A stretch of 64,000 bases of DNA from Bacillota bacterium (GTDB taxonomy: Bacteria; Bacillota; Sulfobacillia; JAMCWA01), in the NCBI GenBank assembly GCA_023475165.1, contig JAMCWA010000029.1, positions 1,950-65,949 of the forward strand, read 5' to 3'. The notes beneath the pieces are model-generated. The model had not been told where the DNA came from and made no database searches. It saw nothing but the letters and a program-made list of their open reading frames with translations. Shown one piece after another: positions 3,600-31,493 of the stretch; the stretch's first letter is position 1, and every line of letters starts with the position of its first letter. The position numbers and the translations under genes are program-made.

Positions 3600-3674
3600 G
3601 GGCGAATAGCTCAGTGGTAGAGCACCTGCCTTACACGCAGGGGGTCACAGGTTCGAGCCCTGTTTCGCCCACCA
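3600..3674 (+). tRNA. tRNA-Val (anticodon TAC), CCA encoded
   Basis: Acceptor GGGCGAA/TTCGCCC, anticodon arm CCTGC-CTTACAC-GCAGG, T-loop GGTTCGAGCC, 3' ACCA. Confidence 0.95.
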
Positions 3675-3689
3675 GAGTGACGCAAATAC

Positions 3690-3767
3690 GGAGGCGTGGT
3701 GTAGCTGGCCTAACATACATGCCTGTCACGCATGAGACCGCGGGTTCGAATCCCGTCGCCTCCGCCA
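3690..3767 (+). tRNA. tRNA-Asp (anticodon GTC), CCA encoded
   Basis: Acceptor GGAGGCG/CGCCTCC, anticodon arm CATGC-CTGTCAC-GCATG, T-loop GGTTCGAATCC, 3' GCCA. Confidence 0.95.
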
Positions 3768-3772
3768 TAAAG

Positions 3773-3848
<76 letters not shown>

Positions 3849-3856
3849 GTAATCAT

Positions 3857-3931
3857 GCGGAAGTGGCTCAGTGGTGGAGCATCGCCTTGCCAAGGCGAGG
3901 GTCGCGGGTTCGAATCCCGTCTTCCGCTCCA
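3857..3931 (+). tRNA. tRNA-Gly (anticodon GCC), CCA encoded
   Basis: Acceptor GCGGAAG/CTTCCGC, anticodon arm TCGCC-TTGCCAA-GGCGA, T-loop GGTTCGAATCC, 3' TCCA. Confidence 0.95.
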
Positions 3932-4007
3932 AAAGAGTAAATCGGGGGTCTCCTTGCCAGATCCCCTTAAAGCATATGATGGTCGGATGACCAGTAAGGC
4001 TATCCTG

Positions 4008-4083
4008 GGGCGAGTGGCGAAGTGGCTAACGCTGTGGACTGCAAATCCACCATTCGTCGGTTCAATTCCGACCTCGCCCTCCA
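4008..4083 (+). tRNA. tRNA-Cys (anticodon GCA), CCA encoded
   Basis: Acceptor GGGCGAG/CTCGCCC, anticodon arm GTGGA-CTGCAAA-TCCAC, T-loop GGTTCAATTCC, 3' TCCA. Confidence 0.9.
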
Positions 4084-4089
4084 GAATAC

Positions 4090-4166
4090 GGGCGGTTAGC
4101 TCAGTTGGTTAGAGCGCATGCTTGACATGCATGAGGTCACAGGTTCGAATCCTGTATCGCCCACCA
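4090..4166 (+). tRNA. tRNA-Val (anticodon GAC), CCA encoded
   Basis: Acceptor GGGCGGT/ATCGCCC (one G-U pair), anticodon arm CATGC-TTGACAT-GCATG, T-loop GGTTCGAATCC, 3' ACCA. Confidence 0.95.
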
Positions 4167-18209: not shown

Positions 18210-18530
18210 AATGTGACATCATACTTATGGCGATGATCGGGAAAGTAACTCTTTTCAGACCTAGCAGAGAAGAGGGCCGCTGGCTGAAAGCCCTCAGGCA
18301 GAGGAAAGAGCGAAAACCACCCGAGAGCCGGAGGATGAACGGGATCGCCTGCACAGATCTCGCCAGGGGTCTTTAAGGGCGGAGCGAGTCCCCTGCAGGC
18401 AGTTGACCAACGCGGTCTCCTACTAAATCCTCCCGGATGGTCCCGTTAAAGGCCGACGAGTGGATCCTTTTTCGGATCAAACAGGGTGGAACCGCGGTCA
18501 GCAACCGTCCCTATCGGGGCGGTTTTTTGT
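18210..18530 (+). promoter_or_regulatory. T-box riboswitch, Thr specifier (ACC)
   Basis: Stem I start GCGATGATCGGGAAAGTA. Specifier-loop GAAAACCA with ACC at 18316-18318. T-box AGGGTGGAACCGCG at 18483-18496. Terminator CCGTCCC-TATC-GGGGCGG plus T6 (18504-18528). Confidence 0.9.
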
Positions 18531-18620: not shown

Positions 18621-18695
18621 CCGTTGCTGTTTCATACTTTTTGGCGCCGCCAAAAGGCGGCAGGGGGATCTCCTAGATCAAAGGAGGGGTCTTTC

Positions 18696-20627
18696 ATGTC
18701 AACTATCAAGATTCGTTTTCCCGACGGCCAGGAGAAAGAATACCCTGAAGGGGTGACGGCAGGGGAGATAGCCGAAGGCCTGGGGGCTGGGCTGGCTCGG
18801 GCGGCTCTGGCGGCCCTCATTGACGGCGAGATGGTGGATCTTTCTCGCCCCCTGTCCCAGACTGGGGAGATTCGTCTTTTGACCTTCGATGATCCAGAAG
18901 GGAGGGAGGTCTTGCGGCATAGTACCTCCCACGTCATGGCTCAGGCCGTCCAGCACCTCTTCCCTGGGGTCAAACTGGCTATCGGACCGGCCATTGAAGA
19001 TGGTTTCTACTATGACTTTGATGTTCCGCAGCCCTTCACCCCGGAAGATCTCACTCGTATTGAAGAGGAGATGGGGCGGATCATTGCGGCCGATTACCCT
19101 TTCCTGCGGGAGGAGGTCAGCCGGGAGGAGGCCCTGCGCCTGTTTGCGGAGCGGGGAGAAAAGTACAAGGTGGAACTCATCGTCGATCTTCCGGCCGGGG
19201 AGCCCATCTCCCTCTACCGGCAGGGGGACTTCCTCGACCTCTGCGCTGGTCCCCACATCCCATCCACCGGAAAGGTCAAGCACTTCAAGCTTCTGAGCGT
19301 AGCTGGGGCCTACTGGCGGGGGGACGAAAAGCGTCCCATGCTGCAAAGGATCTATGGAACTGTTTTTGCCAAGAAGAGCGACTTGGAGGAGTATCTTCGT
19401 CGCCTCGAGGAAGCCAAGAGAAGGGACCACCGCCGTCTGGGGCGGGAGCTGGACCTTTTCAGCCTGCAAGAGGAGGCTGGTCCGGGATTGGTCTTTTGGC
19501 ACCCTAAAGGGGGTCTGGTCCGCCAGTTGATCGAGGACTTCTGGCGCGCTGAGCACCGGCGCCGTGGGTATGAGATCGTTTTTTCCCCGCACATCGCGAA
19601 GCTTGACCTTTGGAAGATCAGTGGGCACTGGAGCTGGTACAAAGAGAACATGTACTCCCCCATCAATATCGATGAGGTGGAGTACCTCCTGAAGCCTATG
19701 AACTGTCCTTTCCACATCCTGATGTATAAATCGGCCACCCGGAGCTATCGGGACCTGCCCTTGCGCTGGGGGGAACTGGGAACCGTTTATCGCTACGAGC
19801 GCTCCGGGGTGCTGCACGGCCTCCTGCGGGTGCGCGGCTTTACCCAGGACGATGCCCACCTCTTTGTCCGTCCGGACCAGCTCAAGGATGAACTGGTGGG
19901 GGTCATTGATTTGGCGCAGTTTATGATGGAATCGTTCGGCTATCAGAACTATGAACTCATGCTTTCCGTCCGCGACCCAGAGAACAAGACCAAGTATATT
20001 GGCAGCGATGAGGTCTGGGAGATGGCGGAAAAGGCCCTGGTAGGAGCGCTCCAGACCAAGGGTCTCCCCTACGTCCTGGGCGAGGGGGAAGCCAAATTCT
20101 ACGGACCGGCCATCGACATCACCCTGAAGGACGCCCTGGGGCGAGGGTGGCAGGGTCCCACCATTCAGGTGGACTTCAATCTGCCGGAACGCTTTGATCT
20201 GGCCTATATCGGCGAGGACGGTCAACCGCACCGGCCGGTGATGATCCACCGGACAGTTCTTGGTTCCATGGAACGTTTCATGGGCGGACTGATCGAACAT
20301 TACGCCGGGGCCTTCCCCCTCTGGCTAGCGCCGGTTCAGGCCCGGCTTTTGCCCATCACCGAGCGGCATCATGAATATGCCTATTCCGTCCAGAAAAGGT
20401 TGCAGGAAGCCGGACTGCGGGTCGAGGTGGACCCGCGTAGCGAAAAGGTGGGCTACAAGATCCGCCAGGCTGAGATGGAGAAAGTCCCCTATATGCTGGT
20501 AGTGGGCGATAAGGAAAGAGACCTGGGCCAGGTGGCCGTCCGGCAGCGACAGCAGGGTGATCTTGGCCCCATGGGGGTTGAGGACTTCCTCAGCAAAGCC
20601 CGGGCGGAAATCGGGGAGAAAAGATAG
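18696..20627 (+). CDS. thrS: Threonyl-tRNA synthetase
   Basis: RBS AAAGGAGGGG, ATG 18696 (MSTIKIRFPDGQ). TGS, editing and class II core motifs (HRRLGRELDLF, FRAEHRRRGY, GFTQDDAHLF). Confidence 0.97.
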   Translation: MSTIKIRFPDGQEKEYPEGVTAGEIAEGLGAGLARAALAALIDGEMVDLSRPLSQTGEIRLLTFDDPEGREVLRHSTSHVMAQAVQHLFPGVKLAIGPAIEDGFYYDFDVPQPFTPEDLTRIEEEMGRIIAADYPFLREEVSREEALRLFAERGEKYKVELIVDLPAGEPISLYRQGDFLDLCAGPHIPSTGKVKHFKLLSVAGAYWRGDEKRPMLQRIYGTVFAKKSDLEEYLRRLEEAKRRDHRRLGRELDLFSLQEEAGPGLVFWHPKGGLVRQLIEDFWRAEHRRRGYEIVFSPHIAKLDLWKISGHWSWYKENMYSPINIDEVEYLLKPMNCPFHILMYKSATRSYRDLPLRWGELGTVYRYERSGVLHGLLRVRGFTQDDAHLFVRPDQLKDELVGVIDLAQFMMESFGYQNYELMLSVRDPENKTKYIGSDEVWEMAEKALVGALQTKGLPYVLGEGEAKFYGPAIDITLKDALGRGWQGPTIQVDFNLPERFDLAYIGEDGQPHRPVMIHRTVLGSMERFMGGLIEHYAGAFPLWLAPVQARLLPITERHHEYAYSVQKRLQEAGLRVEVDPRSEKVGYKIRQAEMEKVPYMLVVGDKERDLGQVAVRQRQQGDLGPMGVEDFLSKARAEIGEKR

Positions 20628-25598: not shown

Positions 25599-26669
25599 AT
25601 GCCTGAAGACATTATCAGTCTGGATAACGAACGGATCAAGTCGGCCCGTAAGCTCCTGACGGCTCGCGGACGGGCCGGGGCCGGCCGATTTCTCTTGGAG
25701 GGTCTGCGTTTGGTGGAGGAGGCCTTTGGTTCCGGGGTGGAGCTGGAGGTCCTTTTTTATACCCAGGATTTCTTGGAAGACCACCGCGGGCGTCACCTGG
25801 TGGAAGAGGTGACGGGGCTGGGAGGTAAAGCCTGGTCCGTTTCGCAGCGAGTGCTGAGGTCACTGAGCGAGACAGAGACGCCCCAGGGGGTGGTGGCCGT
25901 GGCCATTATGCCCCATTCTTCCGCCGCCGCCGTTCGGAGGACGCCGTCTCCTGCCGGAGATCCTGGAGAAGGGGCGAAAGGGGCCTCGGAGGCTAGGAGA
26001 TTCCGCCAATGGGTAAAACCGGGCGTGAAGATCGGGTCATCCGGAGAAGAGCAGATGGCTGGGGAGGGGGAGCGGAGGCAGGGATGGTCTGGGGTTGAGG
26101 TGGTGGACCACCCCCAGTTGGAAGGGGTGGATGAGGAGGGGGATTGGGTTGGATTATTCCGGAGGGTTTTATCTCGCCCGTCGCCTCTTATCTTGATAGC
26201 CGACGGTTTACAGGACCCCGGCAACCTCGGCACCATGATCCGGACGGCCGATGCGGCCGGTGCCGACGGGGTCTTCACCACCCCGGGCACCGTTGACCTT
26301 TATAACCCCAAGGTCCTGCGGGCCAGCATGGGTTCCCTCTTTCACCTGCCTGTGCTCCCCGTTTCCAGCGTCGCCCGCCTTCTGTCGGAGGTTACCGGGG
26401 TAGGGCTGATGGTTCTGGCGGCGGACGCCGGGGCGGAAGAGAACATTTATCAATTCGATCTGCGGGGTCCGGTCCTTTTTGCTGTCGGCAATGAGGGGGC
26501 CGGGGTGAGTCCGCTGCTCCTGGCCCACAGCCGGCGGGTGGCCATCCCCATGCCGGGACGAGCGGAATCCCTCAATGCCGCAGTGGCGGCGTCGATACTG
26601 CTATTTGAGGCTGTTCGCCAGAGACGCCAGAAGCACATGTCGTCCCTGGCGCCGACCCAGACCCGGTAA
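25599..26669 (+). CDS. TrmH/SpoU-family RNA 2'-O-methyltransferase (YsgA/RlmB-like) with a ~90-aa low-complexity insertion
   Basis: SpoU motifs DGLQDPGNLGTMIRTADAAG, FAVGNEGAGVS and IPMPGRAESLNAAVAASI. Sits upstream of pheS as ysgA does in Bacillus. 356 aa against roughly 250-270 for typical members. Confidence 0.85.
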   Translation: MPEDIISLDNERIKSARKLLTARGRAGAGRFLLEGLRLVEEAFGSGVELEVLFYTQDFLEDHRGRHLVEEVTGLGGKAWSVSQRVLRSLSETETPQGVVAVAIMPHSSAAAVRRTPSPAGDPGEGAKGASEARRFRQWVKPGVKIGSSGEEQMAGEGERRQGWSGVEVVDHPQLEGVDEEGDWVGLFRRVLSRPSPLILIADGLQDPGNLGTMIRTADAAGADGVFTTPGTVDLYNPKVLRASMGSLFHLPVLPVSSVARLLSEVTGVGLMVLAADAGAEENIYQFDLRGPVLFAVGNEGAGVSPLLLAHSRRVAIPMPGRAESLNAAVAASILLFEAVRQRRQKHMSSLAPTQTR

Positions 26670-26707
26670 GCTGGAATAAGATCGGATTATTTTAAAGATT
26701 GCCGGAC

Positions 26708-26737
26708 TTGTTTTTTGAACGGGTACTGTGATATAAT
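26708..26737 (+). promoter_or_regulatory. Sigma-A promoter (extended -10) of the pheST leader
   Basis: TTGTTT (26708-26713), 18-nt spacer ending TGA, TATAAT (26732-26737). Confidence 0.55.
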
Positions 26738-26769
26738 CTTTATACGAGCTAAAAAGGGGGCGTGACCAG

Positions 26770-26859
26770 ATGACAGCCGCCATGTTCTTCTGGAAATTCT
26801 TTGAACTGACTGGCTCGATCAGCGCCTACCTTCTTTACAAACGATATTCGTTACAGTGA
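26770..26859 (+). CDS. 29-codon Phe/aromatic-rich mini-ORF in the pheST leader (candidate leader peptide or small protein)
   Basis: AGGGGG SD 9 nt before ATG 26770. Sequence MTAAMFFWKFFELTGSISAYLLYKRYSLQ, with Phe at codons 6, 7, 10 and 11. Its stop TGA 26857-26859 lies at the base of T-box Stem I. Confidence 0.4.
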   Translation: MTAAMFFWKFFELTGSISAYLLYKRYSLQ

Positions 26860-27205
26860 AAGGCGAGGACGGAGAAAAGTAAGCGGCTGACGAACCTCCA
26901 GGGAGGGGGTGCCGTGACTGAAAGCACCCCCGGGCGAGTTCCGCTGAAGTTCGCTCCTGAGCTGCCAATTGAAAGAGGCCATTGGTCCTGCAGGTTGCCC
27001 AAAATCAGGCCCGGGTCCGGGCGGGCCAATCCGGGAGGACCCCTGGTCATCAAGTAGATCTGGCCGGTGGTTTACCGTTACGAGAACGGGGTTTACCATT
27101 TGGGGACCTGGTGAACCCAGTGAGGGAGGCCGAAGGGCCTAAGAAGGGTGGTACCGCGGAAGCTTGGCTTCCGTCCTGGCAAGGGACGGAAGCTATTTTA
27201 ATTTT
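26858..27205 (+). promoter_or_regulatory. T-box riboswitch, Phe specifier (TTC)
   Basis: Stem I start GGCGAGGACGGAGAAAAGTAAGC. Specifier GAAGTTCG with TTC at 26950-26952. T-box AGGGTGGTACCGCG at 27145-27158. Terminator GCTTCCGTCC/GGACGGAAGC plus a T-rich tail (27167-27205). Confidence 0.9.
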
Positions 27206-27218
27206 GGGGGGAAAAGAT

Positions 27219-28241
27219 TTGCGAGAGCGATTGCCACAGATCACCCAGGAAGCGTTGCAGTCAATCCAGATCGCCCGGAACCTGGAAGATCTGAAGAACA
27301 CCAGGGTCAGGTTCCTGGGGAGGAAGGGCCTTTTGACCGAGATTCTGCGGGGGATGGGGAATCTTCCGCCGGAAGAGAGACCGCTGCTTGGGCAACTGGC
27401 CAACGCCAGCCGTCAGGAGATTGAGGCCAGGTTAAGCCAGCGGGAGATGGAGCTGAAGGAAGAGGAGAAAGAGAGCCGCTGGAAGCGCGAGGCTCTTGAT
27501 GTGACCCTCCCCGGGGTGGAACTGCCGCGGGGGCATAAACATCCCCTCCGCCAGGTGTGGGAGGAAATCGAGGCGATCTTTATTTCTATGGGTTTTGAGG
27601 TGGCACACGGGCCGGAGGTGGAGACTGATTTTTACAATTTTGAGGCCTTAAACATCCCTCCTGATCATCCGGCCCGTGATATGCAAGATTCCTTCTTTTT
27701 TACTGAGGAGATCCTCCTGCGCACTCAGACCTCGCCGGTTCAGATCCGCACCATGCAGGCCCGGGCGCCCCGCCTGCCGGTAAAGATCATTGCCCCTGGA
27801 CGGGTCTACCGCAGGGACGATGATGCCACCCATTCGCCGATGTTTCATCAGGTGGAGGGCCTACTGGTGGATACAGGAGTGACATTTGGCGATCTGAAAG
27901 GAACCTTGGAAACCTTCGCCCGGCGCCTTTACGGACCGGGGACGCGGATCAGGCTGCGCCCCAGCTATTTTCCTTTCACGGAACCCAGTGCGGAAGTGGA
28001 TGTCTCCTGCACCATTTGCGGTGGCCAGGGCTGTCGGGTTTGCAAGGGGACTGGGTGGCTGGAGATCTTGGGTACGGGGATGGTACACCCCGGGGTTTTG
28101 CAGAACGGCGGCTACGATCCGGAAAAGGTGACCGGCTTTGCCTTCGGTATGGGGATCGAGCGCGTGGCCATGCTCAAATATGGGATTGACGACCTGCGCC
28201 ACTTCTTTACTAATGACATAAGGTTTCTGGAACAGTTCTAA
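27219..28241 (+). CDS. pheS: Phenylalanyl-tRNA synthetase alpha subunit
   Basis: TTG 27219 ([13 protein letters not shown]) follows a G-rich SD and gives the canonical ~340 aa. Class II motifs [43 protein letters not shown]. Confidence 0.95.
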
Positions 28242-28275
28242 GACATCCAACTTCTGTTCTCAGGGAGTGAAAGTG

Positions 28276-30822
28276 ATGAGGGTTTCCCATAACTGGCTAA
28301 AGGAATACGTCGATTCTGACCTCACCCCGCGGGACCTGGCCGAGGCTTTAACCCAGGCTGGGGTGAATGTGGCCCAAGTGGAAAAAGTGGAGGGGGCGCG
28401 GGGGGTGGTGGTGGCCAGGATCGTCACCTTGAGGCCGCATCCGAACTCGGACCGCCTTTTGGTAGCCGCGGTTTCGGCGGGAGAGAGCGGAGGCCAGGTG
28501 GTAACGGGCGCCACCAATATCAAGCCCGGGGATTGTGTACCCTGGGCGGCTCCTGGGGCCATACTGCCTGGAAACTGGGCCATCGGCACGACCGATTTGC
28601 GTGGCGTTCGATCGGAGGGGATGCTCCTCTCCGAAACAGAGCTCCTTTTGGGCCAACCTCACCTGGAGGACGAGGGCATTCTCGTCCTGGGGGAGGATGC
28701 TGTGCCTGGGACGCCGGTAACCCCCCTCCTGGGTCTGGAGGACCATATGCTGGAACTGGACCTCACTCCGAACTACGCTGCCCATTGTCAGAGCATGATC
28801 GGAGTGGCCCGGGAGGTAACGGTCATCACTGGTGGGAAGCTACGGTGGCCAGGCCGAGCAGCGACTCCCGCCGGTCCCCTTCCGCCCGGTGGCCTCGCCG
28901 GCAAGGCCGGGACTGTGCTCGGGACGGCTGGACCGAATCCGCTTTTCTCCTGGGTCACGGTGGAGGTCTGGGACACGGATCTCTGTCCTCGCTACACGGG
29001 GCGGATCATCTCCGACGTCAAGATTGGCCCTTCTCCGGCCTGGATGCGACAACGGCTCCAGTCAGCCGGGATCAGACCCATCAACAACGTGGTGGATGTC
29101 ACCAACTACGTCATGCTGGAACTGGGACAGCCGCAGCACGCCTTCGATTACGATCTGCTCCGGCAGAAAAAGGTGATCGTCCGCCGGGCCAGGGTCGGTG
29201 AGAAGATCCGGACCCTGGACGGTGTGGAAAGAACCCTGGAGGGGGACGATCTCGTCATAGCCGATCCGGAACGGGCCATAGGCATTGCCGGGGTCATGGG
29301 CGGAGAAGAGACTGAGATTACCGCTTCCACCAGGACCATCTTCTTGGAGTCGGCCTATTTCGCGGGACGGGGGATCAGCCGGACCTCGCGGCGCCTGGGT
29401 TTACGTTCCGAGGCCTCCGGTCGCTTTGAAAAGGGGCTGGACCCCAATCTGGCCCTGGTGGCAGCGGACCGGGCAGTGGAATTAATGGAATTGCTCGGGG
29501 CCGGGAAGGGGGTTCCCGGGGTAGTCGACCTTTACCCCAACCCGGTCAAGCCCCGGGAGATCACCCTACGGCTGGAGCGAATGAACGGGCTCTTGGGGAC
29601 AGACTTAACCGTTGAGGAGACGGCCTCCATCTTACGGCGTTTGGGGTTTGCCACTGAGTTGGAGGTCGCAGGGTCTGATAGTCTTGAGGCCCCAACTGGG
29701 ACGATGGAGAAAGGTCCCCGAATCTTGGTCCACGTTCCCACCTTCCGACCCGATATTGAGGCAGAAGTGGACCTGGCGGAGGAGGTGGCACGGGTCTATG
29801 GTTTCAACCGCATAAAAACCACTCTGCCCTTTGGGCCCACCACCTCTGGGGGCAAGGACCGGGAACACCAATTGGTGGACTTGGCCCGGGGAGAGCTGGT
29901 AAGTATGGGGCTGGACGAGGTCTTGACTTATTCCTTTATCCACCCGGCTACCTTCGACCGTCTCCGCCTGCCGGTCGATGACCTCCAGAGGAGGGCACTG
30001 GTGCTTTCGAACCCCCTCTCTGAGGAACAGAGCGTCATGCGGACCGGCCTCCTTGGTAGTATCCTCGAGGTTATGGCCTATAACGCCAGCCGGAAAAACG
30101 CCGATCTGGCCATCTTTGAAATCGGGACGGTGTACCTGCCGGTGGAGGTTCCCCCAACCAGGCAGCCCGAAGAGGTCTGGCGGCTGGGGTTAGGGGCTAT
30201 GGGAAACTGGCGGCGCAAAACCTGGCGGGAACCGGCGGCTGCCGGAGACTTCTATTACCTGAAGGGCGTCCTGGAGAGGCTCCTTGAAAGGCTGGGGCTG
30301 GAGGGGCGGTTTGAGGCCGGTCAGCATCCGACCTTCCAGCCAGGACGGACAGCCAGGTTGTTGGTGCGATCCAAAGCCCGCCGGAAGGCTCACCAGTTGG
30401 TTATGGTGGGTTGGTTGGGGCAGGTTCACCCCGATGTCCAGGGGGCCTATGACCTGCCGGGAAGTTGTTATCTGGCGGAACTGGACTTCTCGTATCTATT
30501 GAAGGAGGCCGATCTGACCAGGACCTACCAGGCTTGGACCAGGTTCCCGGCCGTTGCCAGAGACCTGGCCTTGGTGGCACCGGAAGGGGTCCCAGCCCAA
30601 GACATCGCTGAGGTCATCCAGCAAGAGGGCGGGGAGCTCCTGGAGAGCTGGCGGCTATTCGACCTGTACCAGGGTGATCCTGTCCCGTCCGGTTACCGTA
30701 GCCTGGCCTTCTCTCTCACCTACCGTTCAACGGAACGGACTTTGACCGACGAAGAGGTAGACGACAGACAGGAACAGGTCTTACGGAGGCTTCAGGAGGG
30801 GTACGGGGTCAGGTTGAGATAG
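28276..30822 (+). CDS. pheT: Phenylalanyl-tRNA synthetase beta subunit
   Basis: ATG 28276 lies 8 nt after AGGGAG and gives MRVSHNWLKEYV. tRNA-binding, B3/4, B5 and FDX-ACB regions are recognisable. Confidence 0.95.
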   Translation: MRVSHNWLKEYVDSDLTPRDLAEALTQAGVNVAQVEKVEGARGVVVARIVTLRPHPNSDRLLVAAVSAGESGGQVVTGATNIKPGDCVPWAAPGAILPGNWAIGTTDLRGVRSEGMLLSETELLLGQPHLEDEGILVLGEDAVPGTPVTPLLGLEDHMLELDLTPNYAAHCQSMIGVAREVTVITGGKLRWPGRAATPAGPLPPGGLAGKAGTVLGTAGPNPLFSWVTVEVWDTDLCPRYTGRIISDVKIGPSPAWMRQRLQSAGIRPINNVVDVTNYVMLELGQPQHAFDYDLLRQKKVIVRRARVGEKIRTLDGVERTLEGDDLVIADPERAIGIAGVMGGEETEITASTRTIFLESAYFAGRGISRTSRRLGLRSEASGRFEKGLDPNLALVAADRAVELMELLGAGKGVPGVVDLYPNPVKPREITLRLERMNGLLGTDLTVEETASILRRLGFATELEVAGSDSLEAPTGTMEKGPRILVHVPTFRPDIEAEVDLAEEVARVYGFNRIKTTLPFGPTTSGGKDREHQLVDLARGELVSMGLDEVLTYSFIHPATFDRLRLPVDDLQRRALVLSNPLSEEQSVMRTGLLGSILEVMAYNASRKNADLAIFEIGTVYLPVEVPPTRQPEEVWRLGLGAMGNWRRKTWREPAAAGDFYYLKGVLERLLERLGLEGRFEAGQHPTFQPGRTARLLVRSKARRKAHQLVMVGWLGQVHPDVQGAYDLPGSCYLAELDFSYLLKEADLTRTYQAWTRFPAVARDLALVAPEGVPAQDIAEVIQQEGGELLESWRLFDLYQGDPVPSGYRSLAFSLTYRSTERTLTDEEVDDRQEQVLRRLQEGYGVRLR

Positions 30823-30970
30823 ATTGGGAAAAAGGGAGCCCAGTGGCTGGGGGGCAACCCCCGGTTTAAAAGCCGCGACCAGATCGTCGATACCCGTTTC
30901 CGAGGTGCTAAGTAGAAAAATTCTTCACGGTGATGCATATAAAGTTTCCACCTGGCCAAAATACCACTAG

Positions 30971-31387
30971 AGGTCTGCAGTAGCCGAGCTAAGACTGTCA
31001 TAGGTTCCCGCCGGGGATCTATGATAGTCGAGCAAAGGTTGTCAGGGGCCTACCGGTTCCTGGCAGCCGGAGCGCAGATCATCAGGCGTCCTGTCAGGGT
31101 TCCTGGCAGTCCCTTAGATTGTCAGGGGCTCAAAAGGGATGTCTGGTGGTCGAGCAAAGATCATCATGGGTTCCGCAGGTCTGCTAACAGGCTCTACGGG
31201 ACACCGTCTCGCCGACTAGAGGTTTACGGCAGCCGAGAGGTTGCCGTAGGCTTCGCAGGTACTCATGATGGTCGAGATAAGGTTATTGCAGGTTCCGTAA
31301 GGGTCTATGGTAGCCGAAAGGTTGCCGTGGGCTCTGTAGGGATCTGCAGTAGCCGGACGAAGGTTGCTGCAGGCTTCTTTTTTGTTT
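30971..31387 (+). repeat. Array of about ten degenerate 37-45-nt hairpin repeats ending in an intrinsic terminator; candidate structured multi-hairpin RNA
   Basis: Units share CTNNNG-(G/A)T-AGCCGAG..AAGGTTG-NNNN-AGG. Clear hairpins: TACGGCA-GCCGAGAGGT-TGCCGTA (31225-31248), CTATGGTA-GCCGAAAGGT-TGCCGTGG (31305-31330) and CTGCAGTA-GCCGGACGAAGGT-TGCTGCAG (31344-31372), followed by the T-run 31375-31387. Confidence 0.7.
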
Positions 31388-31388
31388 A

Positions 31389-31493
31389 GGCGCCCGAAGG
31401 TGAGAAGTGATCAAACCAACTCCTTGTCATGAAATATTGCGCTTACCTTCTTTGGGGCGGCGCCCGAAGGTGAGAAGTGACCAAACCCACTCC
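31389..31493 (+). repeat. 35-bp direct repeat pair (offset 70 bp)
   Basis: GGCGCCCGAAGGTGAGAAGTGATCAAACCAACTCC (31389-31423) versus GGCGCCCGAAGGTGAGAAGTGACCAAACCCACTCC (31459-31493); 33/35 identical. Confidence 0.85.

Follow-up and report, generated by a model that had tools for sequence, protein, structure and literature searches.

What does a short, phenylalanine-rich open reading frame (ORF) do when it separates the promoter from the T-box in a phenylalanyl-tRNA synthetase operon? The pheST locus of a Bacillota bacterium, contained in a 64,000-nucleotide stretch of DNA that was analysed as a whole and is referred to here as the window, presents exactly this arrangement. An earlier note on the window suggested that its ORF and T-box may combine two known modes of control in one leader, a Phe-rich leader peptide of the Escherichia coli pheM kind and a T-box, and named a genuine small protein or mere chance as alternatives.

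The ORF runs along the plus strand from an ATG at 26770 to a TGA at 26857-26859 (26770-26859; 29 codons plus stop) and encodes MTAAMFFWKFFELTGSISAYLLYKRYSLQ. Codons 6, 7, 10 and 11 specify phenylalanine (TTC TTC .. .. TTC TTT), and eight of its residues are aromatic (F6, F7, W8, F10, F11, Y20, Y23 and Y26). Upstream and on the same strand lies a gene for a TrmH/SpoU-family RNA 2'-O-methyltransferase (25599-26669), recognized by its Pfam SpoU_methylase and substrate-binding domains; these occupy residues 10-100 and 197-336 of the protein, and the Gly/Glu/Arg-rich stretch of about 95 residues between them does not align to relatives, splitting their tblastn matches in two. Between this gene and the ORF, a sigma-A-type promoter can be read from the sequence at 26709-26737, composed of a -35 element TTGTTT (26709-26714), a 17-nt spacer and a -10 element TATAAT (26732-26737). 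A TG at 26729-26730, within the spacer, makes this an extended -10 element (TGaTATAAT); the weak -35 element accounts for the absence of the promoter from the output of a strict consensus scan. The Shine-Dalgarno sequence AAAGGGGG (26753-26760) lies 9 nt 5' of the ATG and within a conserved GAAAGGnnGTG(ATC) motif of the ribosome-binding region (26753-26769, and the equivalent place in L002-L152), which we take to be complementary to the 3' end of Bacillota 16S rRNA, the anti-Shine-Dalgarno sequence, over a far greater length than is usual. The ORF with its four Phe codons and eight aromatic residues, the spacing of the Shine-Dalgarno sequence and the position of the -10 element are all as the note had described them.

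Immediately downstream, cmscan places a Phe-specific T-box leader (RF00230) at 26857-27181 of the plus strand, with 77.7 bits and an E-value of 3.9e-17, a score below the model's gathering score of 93. This sub-gathering match carries the features expected of a member: a specifier for the cognate amino acid (UUC at 26950-26952, in the context GAA-G-UUC-G); a T-box sequence, GGGUGGUACCGCG (27146-27158), whose UGGU bulge (27149-27152) matches the A73-CCA end of tRNA-Phe(GAA), the sole tRNA-Phe of the genome; and an intrinsic terminator (27165-27205) formed by a 13-bp stem (27165-27195) followed by the T-run TTTTAATTTT. A scan of the plus strand from 26500 to 27400 returned no terminator-like site other than the one at 27165-27195. 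The T-box is followed by pheS, with a TTG start (27219-28241; 53-68% tblastn identity to the PheS of relatives), and by pheT (28267-30822). The assignment of a Phe-specific T-box to pheST thus stands, as does the claim that the ORF ends where the T-box begins: its TGA forms the first three bases of the RF00230 match, and the first Stem I pair lies at 26863-4. Two further promoter positions were considered and rejected. The window leaves no room for pheS to have a promoter of its own in the interval from ORF to T-box, since the stop codon overlaps the T-box match, and within the ORF no convincing -35/-10 pair was seen by eye, nor any by scan.

Other features of the window are recorded here for completeness. 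A second T-box (18224-18515; 108 bits, above the gathering score) precedes a 667-codon frame (18624-20627) that is probably thrS, itself followed by frames of the size of IF3 and L20 (21039-21584 and 21992-22345). Six tRNA genes lie at 3600-4163. Just past pheT, at 30970-31493, are degenerate direct repeats comprising 35-nt units spaced 44-122 nt apart and a 47-nt pair 70 nt apart.

Is the ORF a gene at all? Length is no guide, as 104 frames of at least 20 codons occur within 7 kb and a 29-codon frame alone is no better than chance; we take the ORF as real because it is conserved. Of 41 genomes of the same class, each from a different family, 33 gave a match to the peptide when searched in six frames. 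When the class set is aligned, the columns of the first, second and third codon positions have entropies of 0.62, 0.40 and 1.38, the third position varying two to three times as much as the others. A broader collection of 109 distinct sequences gives a pS of 0.85, a pN of 0.18 and a pN/pS of 0.21; across these sequences the 20-codon core contains zero indels and no in-frame stops or frameshifts, and the invariant residues are encoded by all of their synonymous codons, with Phe appearing as TTT and TTC interchangeably. Such wobble bears directly on the notion that the conserved entity is an RNA element—an extra T-box domain, for instance—or a chance frame, and not a protein gene. The brevity of the ORF, a Pfam match that covers only part of the profile and the many non-ATG starts among relatives would suit that notion. 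Yet synonymous sites are too close to saturation to accommodate conserved pairing with the ORF; the folding of the ORF region does not stand out from that of shuffled sequence (z -0.43), and no significant or conserved RNA pairing involving the ORF was found. Chance, one of the alternatives in the note, is ruled out by conservation in the class relatives together with codon wobble, and an RNA element in place of the ORF by codon-position entropy, pN/pS and shuffle-level folding, so that we give readings of this kind practically no credence. Selection acts on the protein encoded by the ORF at 26770-26859. The ORF is presumably translated, and as the start codon is often GTG or TTG in relatives, expression may be low.

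The protein has recognizable kin. The peptide matches PF14006 (YqzL-like) with 32.0 bits and an E-value of 1.5e-7, against a Pfam cut-off of 27, and scores 32.8 bits in a six-frame search of the genome. The match is limited to profile positions 2-20 of 44, and an NCBIfam search with the peptide returned no match, so that it is the N-terminal motif alone that decides membership. The exact peptide is present in NCBI nr, and relatives of 29-35 residues at homologous loci carry the NCBI name "YqzL family protein"; together with the PF14006 match and pN/pS, this naming is our basis for calling 26770-26859 a YqzL-like microprotein gene. The subfamily shares the core A-E/D-F-F-W-R/K-L/I-F-E-x-T-G-S-I/V-x-A-Y-L-L-Y-K/R. 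Five positions are invariant in the 109 relatives (W8, F11, T14, G15 and Y23) and five more are conserved in at least 97% of them (F7, E12, S16, A19 and Y20); nine non-Phe core positions reach that level. Alignments show a common core, F-W-x-x-F-x-x-T-G-x-[IV]-x-x-Y-L-L, in the window peptide and in the Bacillus-type YqzL proteins that are linked to recO. The window peptide ends six residues past the core and does not have the architecture of about 44 positions with an acidic C-terminal half. Judged by its sequence, the window protein is therefore best described as a truncated, short-form subfamily member of the YqzL-like proteins (PF14006), a family that already has a name and is uncharacterised. 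The searchable literature yielded nothing on YqzL, PF14006 or pheS leader peptides in Firmicutes, the text matches to PF14006 being Plasmodium gene identifiers. Of the alternatives set out in the note, the genuine small protein is the one that the family match and the pN/pS of 0.21 favor.

A fold can be proposed for the core, with reservations. From an alignment of 55 sequences, AlphaFold2 predicts two helices that meet at the invariant T-G-S, with a mean pLDDT of 82.8, and hence a helix-turn-helix hairpin; as AlphaFold2 readily draws helices for short peptides, the model is weak evidence of the actual fold. A profile search of the PDB gave only weak, meaningless matches to phage tail-tube proteins.

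The place of this gene before pheST proves to be widely shared. In all 30 class-level loci examined, pheS lies downstream of the ORF on the same strand, usually with a trmH homolog preceding both, and 27 of 29 class-level relatives show a T-box match in the stretch from ORF to pheS. Across Bacillota, 128 distinct loci were retrieved and classified by neighbor, and in 109 of them pheS comes after the ORF in the same orientation. At least 339 further stretches in species-representative genomes encode a relative, and among the best 80 of these pheS lies downstream in nearly all that have enough flanking sequence. Carriers include Symbiobacterium, Limnochordia, Thermoanaerobacterium, Thermovenabulum, Desulfitobacterium, Desulfotomaculum and Ammonifex, as well as Thermincola, Dethiobacter, Hydrogenispora, Syntrophomonadaceae and Negativicutes; the ORF is conserved, then, in the pheS leaders of many genera, a point that the note had proposed to check. 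The surroundings are conserved too. Of the 109 distinct pheS-linked loci, 87 have a trmH homolog upstream in the same orientation, and TGnTATAAT with a TTG 17 nt upstream (cTTGtaa-17-TGnTATAAT) precedes the ORF in 101 of 106 such loci, with the GAAAGGnnGTG(ATC) block and then the start codon downstream of it. From the stop codon to the T-box match the gap is 62 nt or less in 24 of 28 class loci (median 27.5), with a full range of -13 to +271 nt. Within the group of up to 62 nt, a simple scan found no terminators in the spacers longer than 25 nt, and the one spacer of the group checked for a -10-like hexamer, the 62-nt spacer of L004, has none. With a conserved promoter before it and pheS after it in 109 of 128 loci, mostly with an intervening T-box, the ORF has a link to pheST that is real and old, and too consistent for an accident of gene order.

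Equally, the ORF and the T-box have lives apart. Paralogs in the order era/deoC-yqzL-recO carry the same motif at the head of a longer protein with an acidic tail, a context seen for the long paralogs only; in one recO-linked copy (L031) the stop codon falls about 35 nt before recO, and there is no attenuator. At three distinct loci, trmH, the promoter and the ORF lead into other genes and pheS is absent; at one of these, L073, the ORF has a strong hairpin/terminator of its own. One genome (G083) has an ORF-bearing locus without pheS, and on another contig pheS with a T-box motif and no ORF. At L023, ORF and T-box are set apart by a terminator and a second promoter. In nine class genomes pheS lacks the ORF; a T-box motif is present in five of the nine, and at two of these, L062 and L063, the same type of promoter stands upstream of the T-box with no ORF between. 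These arrangements show that ORF and T-box are independent in some lineages. In the recO-linked paralogs and the trmH-linked copies lacking pheS, conservation of the peptide as a gene does not depend on pheS, the circumstance that the note itself had named as speaking against a hybrid.

Some details of these loci deserve separate mention. At seven recO-linked loci (L033, L034, L036-L038, L044 and L049), a T-box motif is found past recO, 1.1-1.5 kb beyond the long YqzL gene, and at L049 it precedes a frame resembling glyQ. Both YqzL paralogs are thus found upstream of T-box operons for two-subunit synthetases (PheRS and GlyRS), which may be coincidence. At L026 (G009:C29), a 53-codon ORF (1486-1647, oriented) combines the same core with a 30-residue tail and ends about 20 nt before pheS, with neither a T-box nor a terminator. 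A second, recO-linked YqzL was sought in the genome of the window itself, where era and recO are minus-strand neighbors (C103:43985-45896) with a gap of about 250 nt; that gap holds no such frame, and the pheS-linked gene is the only family member there.

How does hybrid control fare against this record? Under that reading the ORF is a Phe-sensing leader peptide: ribosomes that stall on its Phe codons, or that finish translation at the base of Stem I, would alter T-box folding or transcript fate, and pheST would integrate pheM-like and T-box signals. Its position in the pheST leader of more than 100 species is certainly suggestive, and in the window a terminating ribosome would, given the size of its footprint, cover the first bases of Stem I. 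The Phe codons themselves give a divided answer. F7 and F11 are (near-)invariant and a tandem FF occurs in 81 of 109 relatives; position 10, however, is L, I or V in 106 of 109, and position 6 is other than Phe in 28 of 109. Nor are F7 and F11 any more conserved than W8, E12, T14, G15, S16, Y20 and Y23. Purifying selection extends over the whole core and is not confined to Phe codons, and the aromatic motif recurs in the recO-linked paralogs, where the few nucleotides before recO in L031 offer no space for an attenuator. Geometry is equally unhelpful to the idea, as the Phe codons lie 50-70 nt 5' of Stem I and about 380 nt 5' of the only terminator, while the distance from stop codon to T-box varies as described above. 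With an ORF that persists without pheS, a T-box that persists without the ORF, and near-saturated synonymous sites free of detectable pairing, we regard hybrid control as highly improbable; what is conserved is a motif and not a set of Phe codons, and the hybrid put forward in the note is not supported.

Some observations congenial to a Phe-sensing peptide come from leaders that have no T-box. About 13 pheS-linked loci, among them L079 (2608-2704), L085, L087, L101, L104, L123, L125 and L137, have only 93-198 nt from ORF to pheS and no T-box match even at E <= 1. Most of these leaders have an intrinsic terminator whose end lies 27-70 nt short of pheS and whose 5' arm often holds CGTCCC, as in T-box terminators. 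In Thermovenabulum, the truncated RNA folds into another helix, GGGAUGA.../...UCGUCCC, beginning about 12 nt past the ORF stop and supplying a possible antiterminator arm. These short leaders could be decayed T-boxes or a different attenuator, and where a lineage lost the T-box and retained the order ORF, terminator, pheS, the ORF might conceivably, if improbably, have become a genuine attenuator leader peptide.

Taken together, the evidence makes it likely that a YqzL-like microprotein gene is the cistron nearest the promoter in the pheST unit and precedes the T-box gate. The extended -10 promoter is the only evident promoter of pheST and would transcribe the ORF as well, which very probably makes the ORF the first cistron of the pheST transcription unit; co-transcription is what the arrangement of signals predicts. 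The unit would then read yqzL-like, T-box, pheS, pheT, with the T-box intercistronic. Because the ORF lies 5' of the T-box terminator, terminated leaders would still carry it complete, and it should be expressed from terminated and read-through transcripts alike, leaving uncharged tRNA-Phe to gate the synthesis of PheRS alone. Under this account the Phe codons would be structural residues of the family motif and not sensors. One feature calls for something more: pheS-linked copies typically read FFW and recO-linked copies xFW or FxW, and the near-universal position in the pheST leader, together with this extra conserved Phe, is not explained by a purely independent protein.

One candidate for that something is a role in cis alongside the protein, which would be compatible with the microprotein cistron. 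Ribosomes at the translated ORF, or at its long Shine-Dalgarno sequence, might shield the leader from 5'-to-3' decay and act as a stabilizer or insulator, by analogy with the Bacillus STAB-SD or ermC-type stabilizers. The predicted 5' end is 20-50 nt away from GAAAGGnnGTG(ATC), a motif with presumed extended complementarity to the 16S 3' end, and most lineages have retained the ORF directly 5' of the T-box. Yet the case is inferential throughout, L062 and L063 run a T-box from the same type of promoter without an ORF, and stabilization would not need a conserved peptide; we consider such a role doubtful, if less so than sensing by the peptide. A more ambitious proposal is that the pheST T-box leader in many Bacillota is a dual-function RNA, a sensor of tRNA-Phe that also serves, in its 5' part, as mRNA for a conserved microprotein, and in which ribosome traffic on the microprotein ORF feeds into the decision or the lifetime of the leader. 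Possible routes are stalling of Phe-starved ribosomes on the conserved FFW..F near the 5' end, or termination at the foot of Stem I. We hold this proposal to be improbable.

The microprotein cistron, which we prefer, turns a candidate for a new regulatory mechanism into something more ordinary, a member of a named but uncharacterised microprotein family. Its setting retains its own interest. In more than 90 species an essential synthetase operon has a microprotein cistron inserted between its promoter and its T-box, a layout of which we found no description in the searchable literature. If our reading of the transcripts holds, the terminated leader, the "off-state" of the T-box, would be a productive mRNA, and the level of the microprotein would be uncoupled from that of PheRS. 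The two genomic contexts also offer a starting point for the function of YqzL, as one paralog lies beside a TrmH-family methyltransferase and PheRS and the other beside Era and RecO. More broadly, the locus is a caution against annotating T-box leaders as non-coding.

Comparison with known systems helps to place the arrangement. The pheM-pheST and pheL-pheA attenuators of E. coli share with it a short ORF that contains Phe codons and follows the promoter in the leader of an operon concerned with phenylalanine. Phe makes up 5 of 14 residues in the pheM peptide and 7 of 15 in that of pheL, compared with 4 of 29 codons in the window, arranged as two tandem pairs, and 2-4 Phe in relatives (mode 3). 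The E. coli peptides are mere codon runs without a conserved sequence, and their ORFs overlap alternative terminator and antiterminator hairpins; the window peptide has a conserved, foldable motif with two to three conserved Phe, no alternative structure involves its ORF, and the only terminator is that of the T-box, 300 nt further on. An otherwise unconstrained peptide, alternative hairpins between which the position of the ribosome on the ORF decides, and an ORF that occurs only with the regulated operon—three marks of the pheM/pheL type—are all missing here.

Arrest peptides such as TnaC, SecM and MifM resemble it in one respect, being upstream ORFs conserved in amino-acid sequence and not in codons alone. 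In the YqzL-like genes, by contrast, the tail from the core (Y23) to the stop varies from 4 to 30 residues and ends in any of the three stop codons, paralogs and stand-alone copies occur away from regulated genes, and nothing points to an arrest site. As for T-box leaders (RF00230), the window has a complete Phe T-box—UUC specifier, UGGU bulge and terminator—as the sensor of the operon; whereas in ORF-less leaders such as L062 and L063 the promoter leads directly to the T-box, the window and its related species insert a microprotein cistron, predicted to be translated, between promoter and Stem I. The known counterpart of that cistron is yqzL of Bacillus subtilis, the type member of PF14006 and likewise a Bacillota microprotein, which shares the N-terminal motif F-x-W-K/R-x-F-x-x-T-G-x-I/V-x-x-Y-L-L-x-K. 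The type form has about 47-60 residues with an acidic C-terminal tail, whereas the window protein has 29 residues and lacks the tail; and where the type member sits in the order era (or deoC)-yqzL-recO, the window presents trmH, the ORF, the T-box and pheS.
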